From a phage: DNA of 43,865 bases. Position 1 is the stretch's first letter; every line of letters starts with the position of its first letter. The notes under the pieces were generated by a model that was given only the letters and a program-made list of their open reading frames with translations, ran no database searches and had not been told where the DNA came from. Made by a program: the position numbers and the translations under genes. The stretch lies in assembly GCA_032298335.1 (NCBI GenBank), contig GCA_032298335.1_4702.1; one strand, written 5' to 3'. Of the stretch, positions 1-43,026 are shown piece by piece.

Positions 1-18
1 TCACTCGCTCACGTGTAC

Positions 19-142
19 CTTAGGTTATTACTTGATGGATAGCTTAGGTTAACCTTAGTGGAACGCCTTAGTTAAAGACTTAGTGCTTATCTTAGTAACA
101 GCTTAGTAGTGTACCTTAGTTGGTCTTAGTGAATAGCCTTAG
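19..142. repeat. Periodic CTTAG(T/G) array, about 10 copies at roughly 12-bp spacing
   Basis: CTTAG begins at 19, 43, 54, 67, 79, 91, 102, 115, 125, 138; further copies at 320, 335, 354 and 459. Non-coding left-end region. Confidence 0.8.
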
Positions 143-340
143 TGATTGCACATGCAAGCATGTAAGATGCCAATAGGTCGCGGTCTGTAGACCGCTAAAG
201 AAAGAGAATAGTAATAAGATGCAGTAGGAGGAACACCAGAAGCCTAGCCAACCTAGCCTATCCTAGCTCTGTATCTATTGCTTTTCCTTAGTCTCACATG
301 TTAGACAACCTATATTATTCTTAGTGATGATAACTTAGTG

Positions 341-369
341 TTGACAAGATAATCTTAGTGTAATACCAT
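341..369 (+). promoter_or_regulatory. Candidate host sigma70 early promoter (TTGACA, 17-nt spacer, TACCAT)
   Basis: Perfect -35 hexamer TTGACA at 341-346; weak -10 TACCAT at 364-369; lies upstream of the first early ORFs. Confidence 0.3.
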
Positions 370-470
370 GCATCACGTAGGCGGTGCTGAGGCACCTAGT
401 AGCCAGCTAGTAAGGCATACGAAGAGACTAGCGCTTACATTGCTCTTTAACAATTTGCTTAGTGTAACCT

Positions 471-692
471 ATGTATGCCGTGGTTAATTACTTATTGAAT
501 GAGAGATTAACTATGACATTAAACAACCGTGAACTATCCGTTCTCTTCACTCTGTTGTGCTACATGATTCGTAAAAACGAATTGCTTACAGATGACGAGT
601 TAGCCTTGTATCACCGCTTTCTTAACGAAGGTTGGACCGATACAGTTAATCAATACCGTAACATGATAGATGAGTTGAGGGAGGGTAAATAA
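471..692 (+). CDS. Hypothetical early protein (73 aa)
   Basis: ORF in the early region; no recognisable motif; start codon uncertain (alternative ATG near 513). Confidence 0.45.
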   Translation: MYAVVNYLLNERLTMTLNNRELSVLFTLLCYMIRKNELLTDDELALYHRFLNEGWTDTVNQYRNMIDELREGK

Positions 693-916
693 TGTATCAG
701 CATGAGGTTTTCTTTGAGTCAGCTAGTGAAGCTATCCGCTTCCTTGAAGATATGCTACAAGCTGGCGTAGGTGTTGATGTACATCACTTCCTACTAGATT
801 ACGACACTGAATATCACCGAGTTACCTTAGTATCTGAGTATGACAACCAAGTCATTACTGAGTACCTAGGCAGTGAAGATTACGATTACGATGAAGTAAT
901 CACGACAAATCTCTAA
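692..916 (+). CDS. Hypothetical acidic early protein (74 aa)
   Basis: ATG overlaps the upstream stop (TAATG); GGAGGG ribosome-binding site 7 nt upstream. Confidence 0.5.
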   Translation: MYQHEVFFESASEAIRFLEDMLQAGVGVDVHHFLLDYDTEYHRVTLVSEYDNQVITEYLGSEDYDYDEVITTNL

Positions 917-1303
917 ATTAACTGTTGACAGCCACGGCATACAAGGTTACATTAAGCATCAAGACGGCGACGTCTTTAAACATCCCGCTCTTTAACAATA
1001 CGGTTTGTGTCTTGATAGGCTAACTAACTAAGGTAATTATCATGAAAGGTTTAATTTGTGTAGAACGTATGGTCAATGGTAAACTTGAAATATTACCACT
1101 GGAAAACCAATCTAGCTTCAAAGAGTGGTATGGCTGTTTCTCACTGATTTAAGGTAAAGGCTGGCACTAGTCAGCCTATCAAGGCGCAAACCAAGCTCTT
1201 TAACAATTTGGATGGTAGCTTCTTAGTCTGGATAGGTTAAACCTAGGGGATTCTCTTGAGTCTCCTATAATGTAACCTAACTAACTAAATGAGGATTAAT
1301 AAC

Positions 1304-1657
1304 ATGGCTATGTCTAATATGACTTACTCTCAGGTTTACAACACCGCTCATGCTGCATTAGTTGAACGTATCTGGAATGATGCTATTGATTGTATTGATA
1401 ACGCACATGATGCAATCCATGATGCGGCGGATAGTGCTGTACCAATCTATTATGCTGACATCTTCTCCGTGATGGCGAGTGAAGGAATTGATCATTTCTT
1501 CGAAGACTCCGGCCTGATGCCAGACACTAAGGATGTAACCGTAGTATTGCAAGCCCGTATCTATGAGCAACTCACAATTGATCTATGGGAACGTGTTCAG
1601 TATATGATTGTTGAATACGTCAACTCCGCCGAATATTTAGAAGAAGAAGAGGAATAA
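1304..1657 (+). CDS. ocr: Ocr-like anti-restriction DNA-mimic protein (T7 gp0.3 homolog)
   Basis: 117-aa acidic protein. Starts MAMSNMTY and contains [42 protein letters not shown] and [15 protein letters not shown] with an acidic C-terminus, matching T7 Ocr as I recall it. GAGGA ribosome-binding site before the ATG at 1304. Confidence 0.85.
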
Positions 1658-1659
1658 GA

Positions 1660-1773
1660 ATGGAAAAGCTATACAACTTCATCTTTTCAGACGGTGTAAC
1701 CCTGAAGTGTTCCCTGCGTTTCGCACAAATTCGTGAGGAAGCACTAGGCACTACATACAAACTATTTAGCTGA
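1660..1773 (+). CDS. Small hypothetical protein (37 aa)
   Basis: Short ORF directly after ocr; its stop lies inside a promoter-like element; weak support. Confidence 0.3.
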   Translation: MEKLYNFIFSDGVTLKCSLRFAQIREEALGTTYKLFS

Positions 1774-1788
1774 CACTATAAGAGAAGG
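1762..1788 (+). promoter_or_regulatory. Phage-promoter-like element with altered +1 (ATTTAGCTGACACTATAAGAG)
   Basis: Close to the SP6 consensus ATTTAGGTGACACTATAGAAG but TATAGAAG is replaced by TATAAGAG; upstream of the RNA polymerase gene. Confidence 0.3.
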
Positions 1789-1849
1789 CTTAACAAGGCG
1801 TTGCTACGGTAGCGCCTGATTAAACTTTCACTTACTAGGAGTTAAGACT

Positions 1850-2077
1850 ATGGATTTAGATAGCATCATTATGGCATTTGCTCTTATTGGCTTAAGCTGG
1901 TGCTCCTATCACCTTTACCGTGAGTTCTTATTTGATAAAGCTAAACGCAAACTAAGAAAAGAAGGCGGCAATTACCTTTGTGTAAGAGGTGGGCTTGTAG
2001 AATACATTGCACCTAACGGCACGGAATGCGCCATTAGCAAAGATGCATTTATAGAAACGTGGCATTACATCAAGTAA
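1850..2077 (+). CDS. Hypothetical small membrane protein (75 aa)
   Basis: N-terminal hydrophobic segment IIMAFALIGLSWCSY; AGGAG ribosome-binding site upstream. Confidence 0.5.
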   Translation: MDLDSIIMAFALIGLSWCSYHLYREFLFDKAKRKLRKEGGNYLCVRGGLVEYIAPNGTECAISKDAFIETWHYIK

Positions 2078-2140
2078 CTAGCCTATAGCCTACCTGAGTG
2101 GGTTATGTGATATTTACTTACACTATATAAGGTGACTATT

Positions 2141-3064
2141 ATGACTACTGAAAACATCCTCCTGTCTGTCCGTGAAGCTGCAACCGCTGAGATTAAGCAG
2201 CATTTGGATAATATCGGCACTTCTTACATCAAAGTTGGCGCTTGTCTGAATGAATTACGCGGTGATTTCGAAGGTCAAAAAGACTTTTTAGCTTATGTAG
2301 AATCAGAGTTCGGCATCAAGAAAGCACAATGCTACAAGCTGATGAGTGTAGCCCGTGTCTTTGAAGGAGACGAACGCTTTAAAGGTGTGGCTATGCGTGT
2401 AATGCTGGCGCTTGTTCCTTTCGCTGATGAAAATATAATCATGGAGAAGGCCGCAGAACTCGCCGCAGAGGGCAAGCTGGACACTAACGCCGTAAACGCC
2501 CTGATTGATCCTAAGAAAGAGACAAAGGCCGAGACGGTACAATCTAAGGTTGAGTCGGTAAAACCGCAGGAGAACGCGACTGAGGCCGCAGAAACTATGC
2601 AAGGACATGCAACCTTTGAGGATTTCATCTTAGAGAAGGCGAAAGAGGATTTACAAAGTGTGCCGCCAGTAAGTGAGTCGGGTAACGACGAATCCGCACC
2701 GTGGGAAGATGAAAGCAAGCCGGAAGACACAAAGGCAGCGCCACGGGATAACACGGCTAATACTGAGAATGCCGCTATTGCTGGTCTGCTGGCACAAATT
2801 AAAGCACTGACTGAGCAATTACAGGCAGCTAATGGCCGCATTGCCTCCTTAAGCAGCGCACGCGAAAGCAAGAAAGCAGCCGCGCCTATGCTGCCGCAAT
2901 TCAAATCTTCCTGCTTCTATGCTCGCTTAGGTTTAAGCGCTGAGGAGGCAACGAAGAAAACAGCAGTTAACAAGGCACGCCGCGAACTGGTTAAGCTAGG
3001 CTACGGCGAAGGCCATGAAGCATGGCCCTTAATCTCTGAGGCAGTAGAAGAATTAACTAAGTAA
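2141..3064 (+). CDS. Hypothetical early protein (307 aa)
   Basis: Long early ORF at the position T7 uses for the gp0.7 kinase, but no kinase motifs seen; ribosome-binding site AAGGTGA before the ATG at 2141 (the ORF track starts at a GTG at 2132). Confidence 0.6.
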   Translation: MTTENILLSVREAATAEIKQHLDNIGTSYIKVGACLNELRGDFEGQKDFLAYVESEFGIKKAQCYKLMSVARVFEGDERFKGVAMRVMLALVPFADENIIMEKAAELAAEGKLDTNAVNALIDPKKETKAETVQSKVESVKPQENATEAAETMQGHATFEDFILEKAKEDLQSVPPVSESGNDESAPWEDESKPEDTKAAPRDNTANTENAAIAGLLAQIKALTEQLQAANGRIASLSSARESKKAAAPMLPQFKSSCFYARLGLSAEEATKKTAVNKARRELVKLGYGEGHEAWPLISEAVEELTK

Positions 3065-3127
3065 CCTTATCGGTGGCATCTTCTTAGGTGTCACCTATTA
3101 AGGTTTCTTTCACTAGGAGTAAACAAG

Positions 3128-5755
3128 ATGCAAGACCTACACGCTATTCAACTTCAACTTGAAGAAGAAATGTTTAACGGCGGTATCCGTCGCTTTGAAG
3201 CGGACCAACAACGCCAGATTGCATCCGGTAATGAATCAGACACGGCATGGAATCGCCGCTTATTGTCCGAGTTAATCGCGCCAATGGCTGAAGGTATTCA
3301 GGCATACAAGGAAGAGTATGAAGGTAAAAGAGGCCGTGCACCGCGTGCATTAGCTTTCATTAACTGCGTAGAAAATGAAGTGGCAGCGTATATCACGATG
3401 AAAATCGTTATGGATATGCTGAACACGGATGTAACCTTGCAGGCTATAGCCATGAATGTAGCTGACCGCATTGAGGACCAAGTACGTTTTAGCAAGCTGG
3501 AAGGTCACGCCGCCAAATACTTTGAAAAAGTTAAGAAGTCACTTAAGGCAAGTAAGACTAAATCATATCGCCATGCGCACAACGTAGCGGTAGTGGCTGA
3601 GAAGTCAGTAGCTGACCGTGACGCTGATTTCTCTCGCTGGGAAGCGTGGCCTAAAGATACCTTGCTACAAATTGGGATGACCTTGCTTGAAATCTTAGAG
3701 AATAGCGTATTCTTCAACGGGCAACCTGTCTTCCTCCGCACCTTGCGCACTAATGGCGGAAAACATGGTGTTTACTACCTACAGACTAGTGAACACGTAG
3801 GTGAGTGGATAACTGCATTTAAAGAACATGTAGCGCAACTTAGTCCCGCCTATGCACCTTGCGTTATTCCTCCGCGTCCGTGGGTGTCACCCTTTAACGG
3901 TGGGTTTCATACTGAGAAAGTAGCAAGCCGTATTCGTCTGGTAAAAGGCAATCGTGAGCACGTCCGCAAGCTGACCAAAAAGCAAATGCCAGCGGTTTAC
4001 AAGGCTGTTAACGCTTTGCAGGTGACTAAGTGGCAGGTTAATAAAGAGGTTTTACAGGTTGTGGAGGACGTTATACGTCTAGACCTCGGCTATGGTGTAC
4101 CTTCCTTTAAACCACTCATCGACCGTGAGAACAAGCCAGCTAATCCGGTGCCGTTAGAGTTCCAGCACCTGCGAGGCCGTGAACTGAAAGAAATGCTTAC
4201 GCCGGAACAATGGCAAGCCTTTATCAACTGGAAAGGTGAATGTACTAAGCTGTACACCGCTGAAACTAAGCGCGGAAGCAAATCGGCGGCAACCGTTCAC
4301 ATGGTTGGTCAGGCCCGTAAATATAGCCAGTTCGACGCAATCTACTTCGTGTATGCACTGGACAGCCGCAGCCGTGTATACGCGCAATCTAGCACACTCT
4401 CACCGCAATCAAATGACTTGGGCAAGGCCTTGCTCCGTTTTACCGAAGGGCAGCGTCTTGATAGCGCTGAGGCGCTTAAGTGGTTTTTGGTGAACGGGGC
4501 TAATAACTGGGGTTGGGATAAGAAAACTTTTGACGTGCGCACTGCTAACGTGCTGGATAGTGAATTTCAAGACATGTGCCGCGACATTGCAGCGGATCCG
4601 CTGACCTTCACTCAATGGGTAAATGCCGACTCCCCTTACGGCTTCCTTGCATGGTGCTTTGAATATGCGCGTTATCTGGATGCACTGGATGAAGGCACGC
4701 AAGACCAATTCATGACGCACCTCCCAGTCCATCAAGATGGTAGTTGTTCTGGTATCCAGCACTACAGTGCTATGCTACGCGATGCAGTAGGTGCGAAAGC
4801 AGTAAACCTTAAGCCCTCTGACTCTCCTCAAGATATTTATGGTGCCGTTGCGCAGGTAGTAATTCAGAAGAATTATGCATACATGAATGCAGAGGGTGCG
4901 GAAACCTTCACTTCTGGCAGCGTGACTTTAACAGGTGCGGAACTGCGTAGTATGGCTAGTGCGTGGGATATGATAGGAATCACTCGCGGCCTGACCAAAA
5001 AGCCCGTAATGACACTACCTTATGGCAGCACACGTCTAACCTGCCGTGAGTCAGTGATTGATTATATCGTTGATTTAGAAGAAAAAGAGGCCCAACGGGC
5101 TATTGCGGAAGGGCGTACCGCCAATCCTGTACACCCTTTTGACAATGACCGTAAGGACAGCCTGACACCTAGCGCAGCTTATAACTATATGACAGCTTTA
5201 ATCTGGCCTTCTATTTCGGAAGTGGTTAAAGCTCCTATAGTGGCAATGAAAATGATTCGTCAGCTTGCACGTTTCGCAGCTAAAAGGAATGAAGGCTTAG
5301 AGTACACCTTGCCTACTGGCTTCATCTTGCAACAAAAGATAATGGCGACAGATATGCTCCGCGTATCTACTTGCTTGATGGGAGAAATCAAGATGAGTCT
5401 ACAGATTGAAACGGACGTAGTGGATGAAACGGCTATGATGGGCGCTGCTGCCCCTAACTTTGTGCACGGTCATGATGCCAGTCACCTTATCTTAACGGTC
5501 TGCGACCTTGTTGATAAAGGGATTACATCTATCGCAGTAATTCATGATTCTTTTGGCACTCATGCAGGTCGCACCGCAGACCTACGTGATAGTCTAAGGG
5601 CAGAAATGGTGAAGATGTATCAAGGCCGTAACGCTCTGCAAAGCCTGTTAGATGAGCATGAAGAACGCTGGTTAGTAGACACCGGAATCCAAGTGCCAAA
5701 GCAAGGAGAGTTTGACCTTAACGAAATCTTAGTATCTGACTATTGCTTCGCATAA
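3128..5755 (+). CDS. Single-subunit DNA-directed RNA polymerase, SP6-type
   Basis: 875 aa. Begins [32 protein letters not shown] and contains [33 protein letters not shown] and IHDSFGTHA, near-identical to SP6 RNA polymerase as recalled; T7 RNAP-family catalytic motifs present. Confidence 0.97.
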
Positions 5756-5763
5756 TATTAATA

Positions 5764-5795
5764 GGCCATTCCTTCGGGAGTGGCCTTTTCTTTTT
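5764..5795 (+). terminator. Intrinsic terminator after the RNA polymerase gene
   Basis: 9-bp stem GGCCATTCC / GGAGTGGCC (one G-U pair) with a TTCG tetraloop, followed by TTTTCTTTTT. Confidence 0.75.
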
Positions 5796-5829
5796 ACCTA
5801 CTACCGGTAACATTTCATTAACATAAAGT

Positions 5830-5845
5830 GTCTCACATGTGAGAC
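5830..5845. repeat. 16-bp perfect palindrome GTCTCACATGTGAGAC (copy 1)
   Basis: Exact self-complementary 16-mer immediately upstream of a promoter variant. Confidence 0.9.
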
Positions 5846-5847
5846 TT

Positions 5848-5868
5848 ATTTACCGGACACTATAGGAT
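5848..5868 (+). promoter_or_regulatory. Phage RNA polymerase promoter variant (ATTTACCGGACACTATAGGAT)
   Basis: Matches the window consensus ATTTACTGGACACTATAGAAG except at -11 and +3/+4. Confidence 0.6.
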
Positions 5869-5916
5869 AGCCGTCGGAGACGGGAAAGAAAGGGAAGATA
5901 AAGGATATAAAAGGAA

Positions 5917-5963
5917 GTAATAGGTATTAAAGGTTATATAGGTTATCTAGGAATACCTATTAC
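5917..5963. repeat. 12-bp perfect inverted repeat flanking a 23-bp AT-rich spacer
   Basis: GTAATAGGTATT at 5917-5928 and its reverse complement AATACCTATTAC at 5952-5963, inside an AT-rich non-coding stretch between two promoters. Confidence 0.8.
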
Positions 5964-6011
5964 CTTCTTCCTTCCTCTTATTACTACTTAGAGGAAGGGC
6001 AGATCTAGGTT

Positions 6012-6027
6012 GTCTCACATGTGAGAC
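6012..6027. repeat. 16-bp perfect palindrome GTCTCACATGTGAGAC (copy 2)
   Basis: Exact repeat of the palindrome at 5830, again directly upstream of a promoter variant. Confidence 0.9.
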
Positions 6028-6032
6028 TTCGT

Positions 6033-6053
6033 ATTTACCGGACAGTATAGATA
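6033..6053 (+). promoter_or_regulatory. Phage RNA polymerase promoter variant (ATTTACCGGACAGTATAGATA)
   Basis: Promoter-like sequence with C to G at -5 and a changed +3; upstream of the gp1.1-like and primase genes. Confidence 0.5.
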
Positions 6054-6079
6054 AGACTAACTTACTTTGGGATTTAACC

Positions 6080-6208
6080 ATGCGTAACTTTGAGAAGATG
6101 ACCCGTAAAGCTAACCGCTTTGACATGGAAGAAGGGCAGAAGAAAGGCAAGAAGCTGAATAAACCTGTCCGTGACCGTGCATCTAAACGCGCTGCGTGGG
6201 AGTTCTAA
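6080..6208 (+). CDS. Small basic protein, T7 gp1.1-like (42 aa)
   Basis: Begins MRNFEKM and ends WEF; lysine/arginine-rich; sits directly downstream of the RNA polymerase gene as T7 gene 1.1 does. Similarity is from memory. Confidence 0.6.
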   Translation: MRNFEKMTRKANRFDMEEGQKKGKKLNKPVRDRASKRAAWEF

Positions 6209-41313: not shown

Positions 41314-43026
41314 ATGCTTCAAAGATTAAGTGCTTACTTGGTGAAGTACAAGAGTAAACTAACAGGTACTATTGAGCGCCTGCTATCTGATAAACTATCG
41401 GATACAATAGATGTTGCGGATTTTGGAGTTACTCCATCTTCCAATGACAACAGGCAAGCACTTCAAGCTGCGTTCAATGCAGTCAGAGTGTTAGGCGGTG
41501 GCACTGTATTAGTCACTAAAGCTGGAAAATACAAACTCAGTGGTACTGTTGAGATATTTGCTAATACACACTTCAAGGTTGCTAAAGGTGTAACATTTGT
41601 ACGTGACTACGAAACAGGAGATACGCTATTCAGATTATCACAAGGGCAAGCTAGTAATGTAACAGTCAGTGGAGGTATCTATGAAGGCAATGGTCACACT
41701 AAGGGAGATACACCTTTTGTAGTATTTGCATCTACTAGTAATAATGATTTGAAGTTTGAAGGCATAACAGTTAACAATGTAGTGGACTACCACGCCATAG
41801 ATTTAGCAGATTGGAACAACGTAGTTATTCGTGATTGTAAATTCCTAGGTTTTAAGAATACAGGCAGTCGTAACTTCTCAGAGGCTATACAGTTAGACCC
41901 AGGTCTTATTACAGTTGGTCACTATGTACAGTCAAGTGGTATGCTGGTGGAGAATTGCTATGCTGGTCCAAACACAGAATCAGGGTTTGGAGGTTATGGT
42001 GCACTAATTGGAAATCACGCCTCAGCTTACGGTGTACAGGACAACAATATCCGTATCTTGAATTGCACTACAGATGGTGCTCTCTTTGCAGGTGTACGTG
42101 TATTTAACTGGAAAAACTGGACAGTGCGTGGTTGCACATTTAGGAACTCTAATGCAAGAGGTGTCCATGTTACACCTGTCTCATCTCAGACTAAACCGCA
42201 GGGTACTCGACAAGGTAGTATTGTAGATTGCACTTTTGATGGCGTAAGGACACCAGTGCTAATTGCTGCACCATCTTGGCCTTTTACTGATATTAGTGAC
42301 ATTTGGCATGACCATATTGAAATTTCTAATAATACTATGATCCTCACAGAGGATGCATCCTATGGTGTAGATGCAAGGTGGTGTAAGAATTTAATTGTAA
42401 AAGGTAATACAGGCTCTGGCGGCTTAGGTTTAATCGGTTTACGCTTTGGGACAAAATACCACATCGAAGGTAATACTTGGGAGAACGGAAGAGGTAGTGG
42501 GATTTGGTTAGGTGAGTCTGATGCTACTACATTCATTGGTACTGGATTATCGGGCGAAGGTGTACTTAGTCGTAATATCCTCTCTAAATTAGGGCAATAT
42601 GGTATTCATGTAAACTGCAAGGTTGGCGGTCTAGTGATTAAGGCTAATAATATGAAGGAAGTATCTACAGCTGAAGCAGGTATGCACTTCATTAGCATAG
42701 ACACAGGAGCTAACAACATCCTAGTAGAGGGTAATATTGGAGTAGATGGAGAAAGCCCTAACAAGCCAAGCCTTGGTATTCGTGTTACTTCTTCTTGTTC
42801 CAATATTAAACTCATTGGCAATGATTGCTATGGTACACAGGCGCCTCAGAATAACCAAGGAGTTGGTTCTAGTACGGTGATTGTTTATGGACTAAATGGC
42901 AACCCTACAACTTTAGGCGTAGGTGCACCTGTAGGCTCTTTAGCAACTGATATCAATGGTTCTGGTGGTAGTACATTGTACGTTAAAGAATCTGGTACAT
43001 CTGCTCAAGGTTGGGTTGCAAAGTAG
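41314..43026 (+). CDS. Tailspike 2, right-handed beta-helix (pectate-lyase-like) putative depolymerase
   Basis: 570 aa; N-terminal VADFGVTPSSNDNRQALQAAFNAV ... GGGTVLV typical of pectate-lyase-fold tailspikes; repeated beta-helix rungs; no T7 gp17-like tail-attachment domain. Confidence 0.8.
   Translation: MLQRLSAYLVKYKSKLTGTIERLLSDKLSDTIDVADFGVTPSSNDNRQALQAAFNAVRVLGGGTVLVTKAGKYKLSGTVEIFANTHFKVAKGVTFVRDYETGDTLFRLSQGQASNVTVSGGIYEGNGHTKGDTPFVVFASTSNNDLKFEGITVNNVVDYHAIDLADWNNVVIRDCKFLGFKNTGSRNFSEAIQLDPGLITVGHYVQSSGMLVENCYAGPNTESGFGGYGALIGNHASAYGVQDNNIRILNCTTDGALFAGVRVFNWKNWTVRGCTFRNSNARGVHVTPVSSQTKPQGTRQGSIVDCTFDGVRTPVLIAAPSWPFTDISDIWHDHIEISNNTMILTEDASYGVDARWCKNLIVKGNTGSGGLGLIGLRFGTKYHIEGNTWENGRGSGIWLGESDATTFIGTGLSGEGVLSRNILSKLGQYGIHVNCKVGGLVIKANNMKEVSTAEAGMHFISIDTGANNILVEGNIGVDGESPNKPSLGIRVTSSCSNIKLIGNDCYGTQAPQNNQGVGSSTVIVYGLNGNPTTLGVGAPVGSLATDINGSGGSTLYVKESGTSAQGWVAK

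Follow-up and report, generated by a model that had tools for sequence, protein, structure and literature searches.

A threefold rrn-type BoxA coupled to gene-enclosing RNA helices in the early region of an SP6-type phage

The subject of this study is a 13-mer, GCTCTTTAACAAT, that occurs three times in the early region of a phage and is identical to the BoxA of Escherichia coli ribosomal RNA (rRNA; rrn) operons. The window, by which we mean the whole analyzed stretch of 43,865 nucleotides (nt; contig GCA_032298335.1_4702.1 of assembly GCA_032298335.1), is a Vectrevirus, a podophage of the SP6/K1-5/K1E type, with 96.8% identity to Escherichia phage 6948 across the first 2.4 kb. The three exact copies, BoxA1 (442-454), BoxA2 (987-999), and BoxA3 (1195-1207), lie on the plus strand within 766 nt, and all are intergenic, placed around the open reading frames (ORFs) 514-692 and 692-916, the ORF 1042-1152, and an ocr-like gene in ORF 1289-1657. 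A first-pass annotation had already reported a near-identical motif repeated three times in the gaps between early ORFs; exact matching and the ORF list bear out both points, its coordinates having been about 1 nt off. The next start codon lies 59 nt past the end of BoxA1 and, for BoxA2, 42 nt past its end; the ocr-like gene starts approximately 106 nt from BoxA3, beyond a large hairpin. A further match to the 13-mer, at 42935, has two mismatches, falls outside the published BoxA consensus, and is at chance level.

The first two early genes (514-692 and 692-916, plus strand) correspond to the K1-5 coding sequences at 781-960 and 960-1184, and the next one is a 36-codon ORF (1042-1152, plus strand) preceded by CTAACTAACTAAGG, which provides stops in three frames and a Shine-Dalgarno sequence. 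Two promoter-like sites of the sigma-70 type accompany them on the plus strand. P1 (341-369) has TTGACA, a 17-nt spacer, and TACCAT, agrees with the consensus at 10 of 12 positions, has a predicted start at about 376, and is kept in K1-5 with TACTAT as the -10 element; P2 (925-953) has TTGACA at 925-930, a 17-nt spacer, and TACATT at 948-953. For BoxA3, no promoter-like site was found on the plus strand between 1040 and 1195. The first SP6-type phage promoter is a plus-strand pattern match without mismatches at 1766-1784, and 10 more plus-strand matches all lie downstream of it. Since the three BoxA copies are upstream of this first phage promoter, they are located in a stretch that can be transcribed only by the host RNA polymerase. 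The phage RNA polymerase gene follows at 3128-5755 (plus strand, from the ORF list), and directly after it a terminator-like hairpin with a T-run (5763-5786, plus strand) presumably ends the early operon.

BoxA is the RNA site bound by the NusB-NusE (S10) dimer, and it nucleates the rRNA antitermination complex. The 13-mer of the window is identical to the BoxA of the E. coli rrnB leader, which reads gcggcacTGCTCTTTAACAATTTatcagac, and for BoxA1 (with flanks, TGCTCTTTAACAATTT) the match to this leader extends to 17 nt through one 5' and three 3' flanking bases. All three copies fit the rrn BoxA UGCUCUUUAACAA and the functional consensus GYTCTTTAANA, as quoted in PMC5725501. This consensus has exactly three matches in the window, at the same three sites, compared with 0.21 expected by chance, and none of 100 shuffles of the window gave three matches. 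In addition, the copies are predicted to be mostly unpaired in RNA, with a mean unpaired probability of 0.73 for BoxA1, 0.74 for BoxA2, and 0.66 for BoxA3, against 0.38 for the whole transcript and at most 0.05 for the neighboring helix arms. The lambda nut type is not matched at these sites: the order and sequence of BoxA are those of rrn and not those of the weak CGCTCTTA with boxB on its 3' side.

Various functions of BoxA are described in the literature. It is necessary and sufficient for assembly of the rRNA antitermination complex (rrnTAC), boxB being dispensable, and the order of elements in rrn operons is boxB-BoxA-boxC (PMC8632103, PMC10250234). The rrnG BoxA binds NusB:NusE at approximately 5-8 nM, and the lambda nutR site more weakly, at approximately 90 nM (PMC2800207). 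Protection from Rho by BoxA extends to further RNAs that are poorly translated (PMC7665894), and a BoxA near the start codon represses translation of suhB (PMC5725501). Finally, according to a passage in PMC3709561 citing Savalia 2010, mutations in the T7 "boxA anti-termination element" make Gp2 dispensable, so the T7 homologue is, on this account, both known and functional. As the motif of the window is identical to the rrnB BoxA, fits the functional consensus, and has a T7 copy reported there as a functional antiterminator, it is most likely an elongation signal, namely one that would protect the host RNA polymerase from Rho and boost its elongation, and it is probably neither a cleavage site nor a transcript end.

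The sequences that adjoin the BoxA copies form two long-range RNA helices, each enclosing a small gene unit. Helix S1 pairs a leader arm at 456-485, beginning directly after BoxA1, with a trailer arm at 929-958, and encloses genes 1 and 2; it has 29 pairs and a duplex energy of -48.1 kcal/mol (RNAduplex), compared with a mean of -28 and a best value of -36.6 for shuffled sequences. Helix S2 is a 25-nt inverted repeat of 1002-1026 with 1168-1192, with 20-25 pairs and a duplex energy of -43.1 kcal/mol (mean for shuffled sequences, -27); the 36-codon ORF lies inside it, and its 3' arm ends 2 nt before BoxA3. All four arms are on the plus strand. The leader strand thus defined begins +0 to +2 nt after BoxA1 and BoxA2, and the trailer lies just past the enclosed gene or genes. 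When the whole P1 transcript (376-1320) is folded, the minimum free energy (MFE) structure contains both helices as well as the small hairpins (z = -8.9), and the arms flanking BoxA are predicted to be more than 95% paired. The trailer arm of S1 coincides with the spacer and the -10 element of P2, and this overlap with a promoter of the TTGACA..TACATT type is kept in relatives from Vectrevirus, Zindervirus, Acadevirus, and Tuodvirus. One and the same DNA segment is therefore constrained both as a promoter and as the complement of the RNA that follows BoxA1. Transcripts initiated at P2 would lack the S1 trailer arm. A search of 6.2 kb gave no long-range partner above background for the sequence that follows BoxA3, and the same holds for the relatives.

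Both helices are supported by compensatory changes, counted on MAFFT alignments of 14 and 16 rows; the sequences in these alignments are related, and the shuffle counts given below are to be read as indications and not as probabilities. For S1, 96.1% of the alignment cells are paired and nine pairs are changed on both sides, and all five measures exceeded those of all 500 shuffles. For S2, 97.8% of the cells are paired, compared with 25-44% in slid controls, and five pairs (17 cells) are changed on both sides; the percentage paired, the number of doubly changed cells, and the covariation score (0.295 vs. 0.183) were reached by none of 500 shuffles, and the number of pairs with a double change and the number of further pair types by 63 and 56 of 500, respectively. 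G·U cells outnumber A·C cells in the helix alignments by 57 to 10, an excess that points to selection for pairing in plus-strand RNA, rather than in DNA or on the opposite strand. The S1 and S2 duplexes, of 20-30 bp, are likely to be substrates of RNase III.

Smaller hairpins precede each of the three BoxA copies, at 383-396, 961-976, and 1158-1177, with a spacing of 10-45 nt, and many relatives lack the first two. The hairpin GGTGC-TGAG-GCACC (383-396, plus strand) lies upstream of BoxA1 near the 5' end of the P1 transcript, is present in the 376-1320 MFE fold, and may be a boxB-like element; at this site the relatives have either AGCAC-TGAG-GTGCT, with both arms changed, or unrelated sequence. 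The two hairpins that the first-pass annotation had placed before the second and third copies are both real. One of them, AAGACG-GCGA-CGTCTT (961-976, plus strand), is located where the P2 transcript is predicted to begin, 10 nt upstream of BoxA2, appears in the MFE fold, and is kept in many relatives and absent from others; the other, AGGCTGGC-ACTA-GTCAGCCT (1158-1177, plus strand), partly overlaps the 3' arm of S2, and in relatives its arms are exchanged, as in CCAGCT-TAAT-AGCTGG and GCCAGC-ATAA-GCTGGC.

The last BoxA is flanked differently. Between BoxA3 and the ocr-like gene there is a two-tier local hairpin (1223-1288, core 1233-1279, plus strand) with an outer stem GGTTA/TAACC and an inner 10-bp helix (MFE -34 kcal/mol, z = -3.4). 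RNAalifold found no structure in the region after the last BoxA, the MAFFT alignment of this region being not structurally consistent, and the relatives were compared here by per-sequence folds. The two-tier shape with outer GGUUA/UAACC is found in 10 of 11 SP6-group relatives, with widely differing inner-stem sequences, and the exception, L008, has an MFE fold without the outer stem. In predicted form the hairpin resembles a T7-type RNase III site, an irregular intergenic hairpin of approximately 20 bp on early RNA, and the flank of the last BoxA may thus be a two-tier hairpin of the kind that RNase III cuts in T7 early RNA.

The first-pass annotation had named lack of conservation in relatives as a point against its reading; the opposite was observed, as the 13-mer is strongly kept and invariant or nearly so among them, often with completely unrelated sequence upstream. 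We collected approximately 26 related early regions with one to four BoxA copies, from five genera and three subfamilies of Autographiviridae, together with unclassified contigs. K1-5 has three copies in equivalent places, and 16 relatives from IMG/VR have two or three copies each. Carriers from other genera, with one to four copies, are K1E, Salmonella SE29, Klebsiella VR702, Proteus PM93, Lelliottia phD2B, T7-like K30, and Pectobacterium PhiM1, the last with a single copy. SP6 has two consensus BoxA sites and a degenerate third, GATCTTTAACAAT (C2A; L004, 1536-1548), which lies before the ocr gene and outside the consensus, and K1E has a degenerate copy with a one-T insertion, GCTCTTTTAACAAT, also before the ocr gene (L142, 2238-2251). 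Besides these two, every copy in the relatives fits the consensus, sites found by the consensus being able to vary only at its two degenerate positions. The copies are on the sense strand, and the minus strand of the related early regions has a consensus BoxA at a single site, in L012. The GenBank records of T7, K1-5, SP6, K1E, SE29, KpnP_VR702, PM93, phD2B, K30, and PhiM1 annotate neither a BoxA nor an RNase III feature in this region.

The coupling of BoxA to a helix is conserved as well. In every relative, the stretch of approximately 30-40 nt directly after each non-terminal BoxA pairs with a downstream partner at -33 to -53 kcal/mol, and the distance from the end of this partner to the next BoxA is 1-6 nt or 12-29 nt, with one exception of 106 nt. 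The number of BoxA copies matches the number of structured modules in each phage: three in the window, four in K1E, two in PM93, and two in K30. The order of the modules differs among phages, and the flanks are swapped exactly at BoxA: L006 and L020 have the upstream side of BoxA2 joined to the downstream side of BoxA3, and in SP6 and phD2B the order of S1 and S2 is reversed. Thirteen S2-type modules from the relatives hold nine unrelated single ORFs of 36-95 codons, which begin approximately 42-45 nt after BoxA and mostly stop 0-16 nt before the trailer arm. The S2-type module is also present in T7-like K30 and in KP34-like PhiM1.

By its sequence, the early region is laid out like a miniature rRNA operon, with BoxA beside a conserved helix that brackets a small gene unit. 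In E. coli rrnB, similarly to the phage, a duplex of -56.6 kcal/mol joins the 40 nt that begin right behind the leader BoxA (+0) to the sequence beginning 5 nt past the 3' end of 16S rRNA, and a second BoxA, GCTCTTTAAAAATCTGGAT, with a hairpin before it, is located in the spacer ahead of 23S rRNA. The order common to both is promoter, optional hairpin, BoxA, leader arm, cargo, trailer arm, and again BoxA; in this order BoxA2 and BoxA3, which follow the first and the second helix, correspond to the rrn spacer BoxA that follows the 16S helix. The hairpins upstream of the phage BoxA copies vary among relatives and may be counterparts of the dispensable boxB of rrn operons; BoxA in the phage is predicted to be single-stranded and the arms paired. 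The leader-trailer helix of rrn operons is cut by RNase III, and in a proposed model BoxA, bound to NusB, keeps the leader strand anchored close to the RNA exit channel, where it pairs with the emerging trailer (PMC10250234). The differences are that the phage cargo consists of small protein-coding genes (36-95 codons, or two genes) instead of rRNA, that the phage loops are 140-600 nt as compared with 1.5-2.9 kb in rrn, that the phage has neither the boxC sequence nor its 18-19-nt spacing, and that one phage trailer arm doubles as a sigma-70 promoter. The assembly-chaperone role is not expected in the phage.

In T7, the same GCTCTTTAACAAT is located at 813-825, 63 nt past the A3 start, on early RNA transcribed by the host, with a structured hairpin between BoxA and the ocr gene (0.3). 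This hairpin is probably the R0.3 RNase III site, which Dunn and Studier reportedly mapped in 1983. BoxA3 of the window, the two-tier hairpin, and ocr are the positional equivalent of this T7 BoxA module. However, T7 has one BoxA for the three promoters A1-A3, whereas the window has three copies, two of them tied to gene-enclosing helices, and no long-range helix was detected after the T7 BoxA (best duplex -29.7 kcal/mol). The similarity to lambda nut sites would be in the use of BoxA RNA and host Nus factors to protect the host polymerase against termination. Lambda, too, has an RNase III site, located past nutL in the N leader. In contrast to lambda, the hairpin of the present phage, when there is one, is 5' of BoxA, the motif is of the high-affinity rrn type and not the weak one, and an N-like protein is not implied, no search for one having been made. 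The BoxA of suhB and that of arrays of clustered regularly interspaced short palindromic repeats (CRISPR) are, like the phage elements, stand-alone consensus elements, with a role in anti-Rho protection or in modulation of the downstream gene (PMC5725501, PMC7665894), but they are single, chromosomal, and devoid of leader-trailer helices, whereas the phage element is repeated and helix-coupled.

Taking these data together, we consider it probable that the 13-mers act as rrn-type BoxA in early RNA made by the host polymerase from P1 and P2, through the mechanism described below. Observed directly are the identity of the motif to the rrn BoxA, its position, strand, and conservation, and the helices with their covariation and strand bias; the binding of Nus factors, antitermination, cleavage by RNase III, and re-loading are steps that we infer by analogy with rrn operons and T7. 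Single-stranded BoxA RNA would bind the NusB-NusE (S10) dimer, which together with NusA, NusG, SuhB, and S4 would turn the polymerase into a fast and Rho-resistant form, able to reach the phage RNA polymerase gene across approximately 2.7 kb in which short ORFs alternate with spacers that are not translated. With BoxA anchored to the polymerase, the leader strand would stay at the RNA exit and capture the trailer once that has been made. RNase III would then cut the duplex, releasing a small mRNA with paired ends and removing the used BoxA, and the fresh BoxA after each helix, BoxA2 after S1 and BoxA3 after S2, would re-arm the polymerase, as is thought for the rrn spacer BoxA.

Several points weigh against this reading. 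Complexes of the rrn type are known chiefly for resistance to Rho, and a Rho-dependent terminator was not identified in the early region. In T7 one BoxA ahead of an RNase III site is enough, so re-loading need not follow every cut. P1 and P2 are defined only by their match to the consensus, and promoter-like sites are no more numerous in the region than expected from shuffling. The canonical boxC UCUGUGUGGG, 18-19 nt after BoxA, is absent at the phage copies; the closest sequence to it is GGTTTGTGTCTTG, beginning 2 nt past BoxA2, and the phage arms occupy the position that boxC has in rrn operons, within the 5' strand of the leader-trailer helix. A helix that begins right at BoxA could moreover compete with the contacts of NusA and SuhB to the linker. 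Finally, in the other viral contigs with BoxA, among the matches listed, the median best duplex is -24.3 kcal/mol as compared with -23.4 in controls. With these medians equal, the leader-trailer layout is not general to viral contigs with BoxA; the exceptions that have it are the SP6-like loci, L064, and possibly L045.

The first-pass annotation had seen in the motif an RNA-processing site or a piece of early transcription punctuation. This stands insofar as the element would regulate early transcription and processing is plausible for the flanking helices; it does not stand for the motif itself, which matches BoxA, a signal of the opposite sense to termination, and within which no transcript end is expected. 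That the 13-mer would nevertheless be a cleavage or transcript-end site, for example an RNase E site punctuating the early polycistronic RNA, agrees with its being A/U-rich, predicted unpaired, and intergenic with structures on its flanks. It strikes us as distinctly unlikely, since an RNase E site needs neither 13-17 nt of identity to the rrn BoxA nor agreement with the functional consensus, the T7 copy of the 13-mer is genetically an antiterminator in the account cited above, and the invariance in relatives of the BoxA core alone suits a specific protein site better than the loose preference of a nuclease. Somewhat less improbable, though still an outside chance, is that the elements do bind Nus factors and have some other main role. 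Repression of translation as at suhB (PMC5725501) would accord with the distances of 42 and 59 nt from BoxA2 and BoxA1 to the start codons, and a strongly transcribed RNA with three sites of high affinity could, through decoys released by processing, draw NusB, S10, or SuhB away from the host rrn operons. Against such roles, a large hairpin and a distance of approximately 106 nt separate BoxA3 from the ocr-like start, the T7 homologue is reported as an antiterminator, and the placement of BoxA right after promoters and after each helix fits loading onto the polymerase.

The exchange of flanks exactly at BoxA, as in the fusions of L006 and L020 and the reversed order in SP6 and phD2B, and the nine unrelated ORFs found between conserved arms in 13 S2-type modules, raise the further question of whether the 13-mers and arms are kept mainly as DNA recombination joints between swappable modules, with a secondary role in RNA. 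We give this very little credence, less even than the cleavage site. A joint need not equal the host BoxA, keep to one strand, or stay unpaired, the compensatory changes in the arms and the 57:10 excess of G·U over A·C cells reflect selection for pairing in plus-strand RNA, and the shuffling of modules is more simply a consequence of conserved functional repeats. As for a chance repetition of a short A/T-rich word, the shortness of the motif and the existence of one two-mismatch match at chance level elsewhere in the window might be cited for it, but it is ruled out for practical purposes by three exact copies in 766 nt, three consensus matches against 0.21 expected and none in 100 shuffles, and conservation across genera. 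The preferred explanation is thus that of rrn-type BoxA acting on the host polymerase in early RNA.

BoxA-dependent antitermination is known from rRNA operons and lambda, and a single BoxA is known from T7; what is apparently new is a repeated, helix-coupled arrangement of BoxA that mimics the architecture of rRNA operons. The open-access full texts searched on SP6, K1-5, T7-like phages, and Autographiviridae, a scope that did not extend to the original SP6 and K1-5 genome papers, contained no relevant description of boxA. A group of virulent phages shares BoxA together with rRNA-operon logic, applied to tiny early genes that include anti-restriction functions needed within the first minutes of infection. 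If the proposed mechanism is true, it would explain how the host polymerase, fast and protected from Rho, crosses a region of poor translation on its way to the phage polymerase gene, and a few hundred nucleotides would suffice as a compact system in which to study re-loading at the spacer BoxA and leader delivery by an anchored BoxA. Conserved cassette boundaries would likewise account for the mosaic early regions in relatives of therapeutic phages. The elements have a value for annotation too, as the inspected GenBank records leave them unmarked.

A broader proposal, which we put forward tentatively and regard as rather less probable than its negation, is that the early region consists of portable, self-sufficient cassettes, each with a BoxA tether, a helix around a single small ORF, excision by RNase III, and re-arming by BoxA, with the conserved BoxA and arms allowing unrelated ORFs to be swapped across the subfamilies of Autographiviridae. 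Were this so, the cassette would be a natural minimal protein-coding mimic of the rRNA operon, and could serve to probe the need for the second rrn BoxA and the role of BoxA anchoring in bringing the leader strand to the trailer.

Outside the SP6 group, at least 120 viral contigs (IMG/VR loci L022-L141) contain GCTCTTTAACAATNNG, most of them not SP6-like and most without an adjacent long-range helix, and BoxA of the rrn type appears to be widespread in phages. Among the matches listed, a single-subunit RNA polymerase was found within the stretch examined at 8 of the 120 IMG/VR BoxA loci, and none of the 120 loci listed has a 16S start near BoxA. Three same-strand copies of BoxA are present in each of L045, L050, and L115. 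In L064 (IMGVR_UViG_3300035181_002381, minus strand), an apparently unrelated contig, the exact 13-mer is found at approximately 3801 in reversed coordinates, with a duplex arm at +1 after BoxA that pairs at -53 kcal/mol and encloses 287 nt. To judge from this locus, the combination of BoxA with a leader-trailer layout may exist outside the SP6 group.

Some other features of the early region were observed in the course of this analysis. The word CTAACTAACTAA, which supplies a stop codon in each frame and has a Shine-Dalgarno sequence after it, occurs at 1020-1031 and 1277-1288, directly 5' of where the 36-codon ORF and the ocr-like gene start; many relatives also keep it ahead of early genes. 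Twelve copies of the hexamer CTTAGT are found in the first 360 nt, spaced by approximately 11-13 nt at 54-138 and recurring at 287-354 around P1; there are 31 copies in the whole window, compared with approximately 11 expected per strand, and the hexamer is also present in the leader arm after BoxA1 and after BoxA3. On the minus strand, the 19-mer TTAGGTTACATTATAGGAG at 1262-1280, within the hairpin after BoxA3, resembles an SP6-type promoter with two mismatches, and could be either a coincidence or a leftward promoter. A permissive Rfam scan of 1-6200 gave nothing for the motif or the helices, its sole hit being a spurious microRNA family at 1773-1844. This below-threshold hit to mir-5879, on both strands, is a palindromic hairpin right after the promoter at 1766-1784; the family assignment is certainly spurious, and the hairpin itself may be real. 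Finally, a perfect 16-nt palindrome, GTCTCACATGTGAGAC, occurs twice just past the terminator-like hairpin, at 5830-5845 and 6012-6027, the two copies being 166 nt apart.

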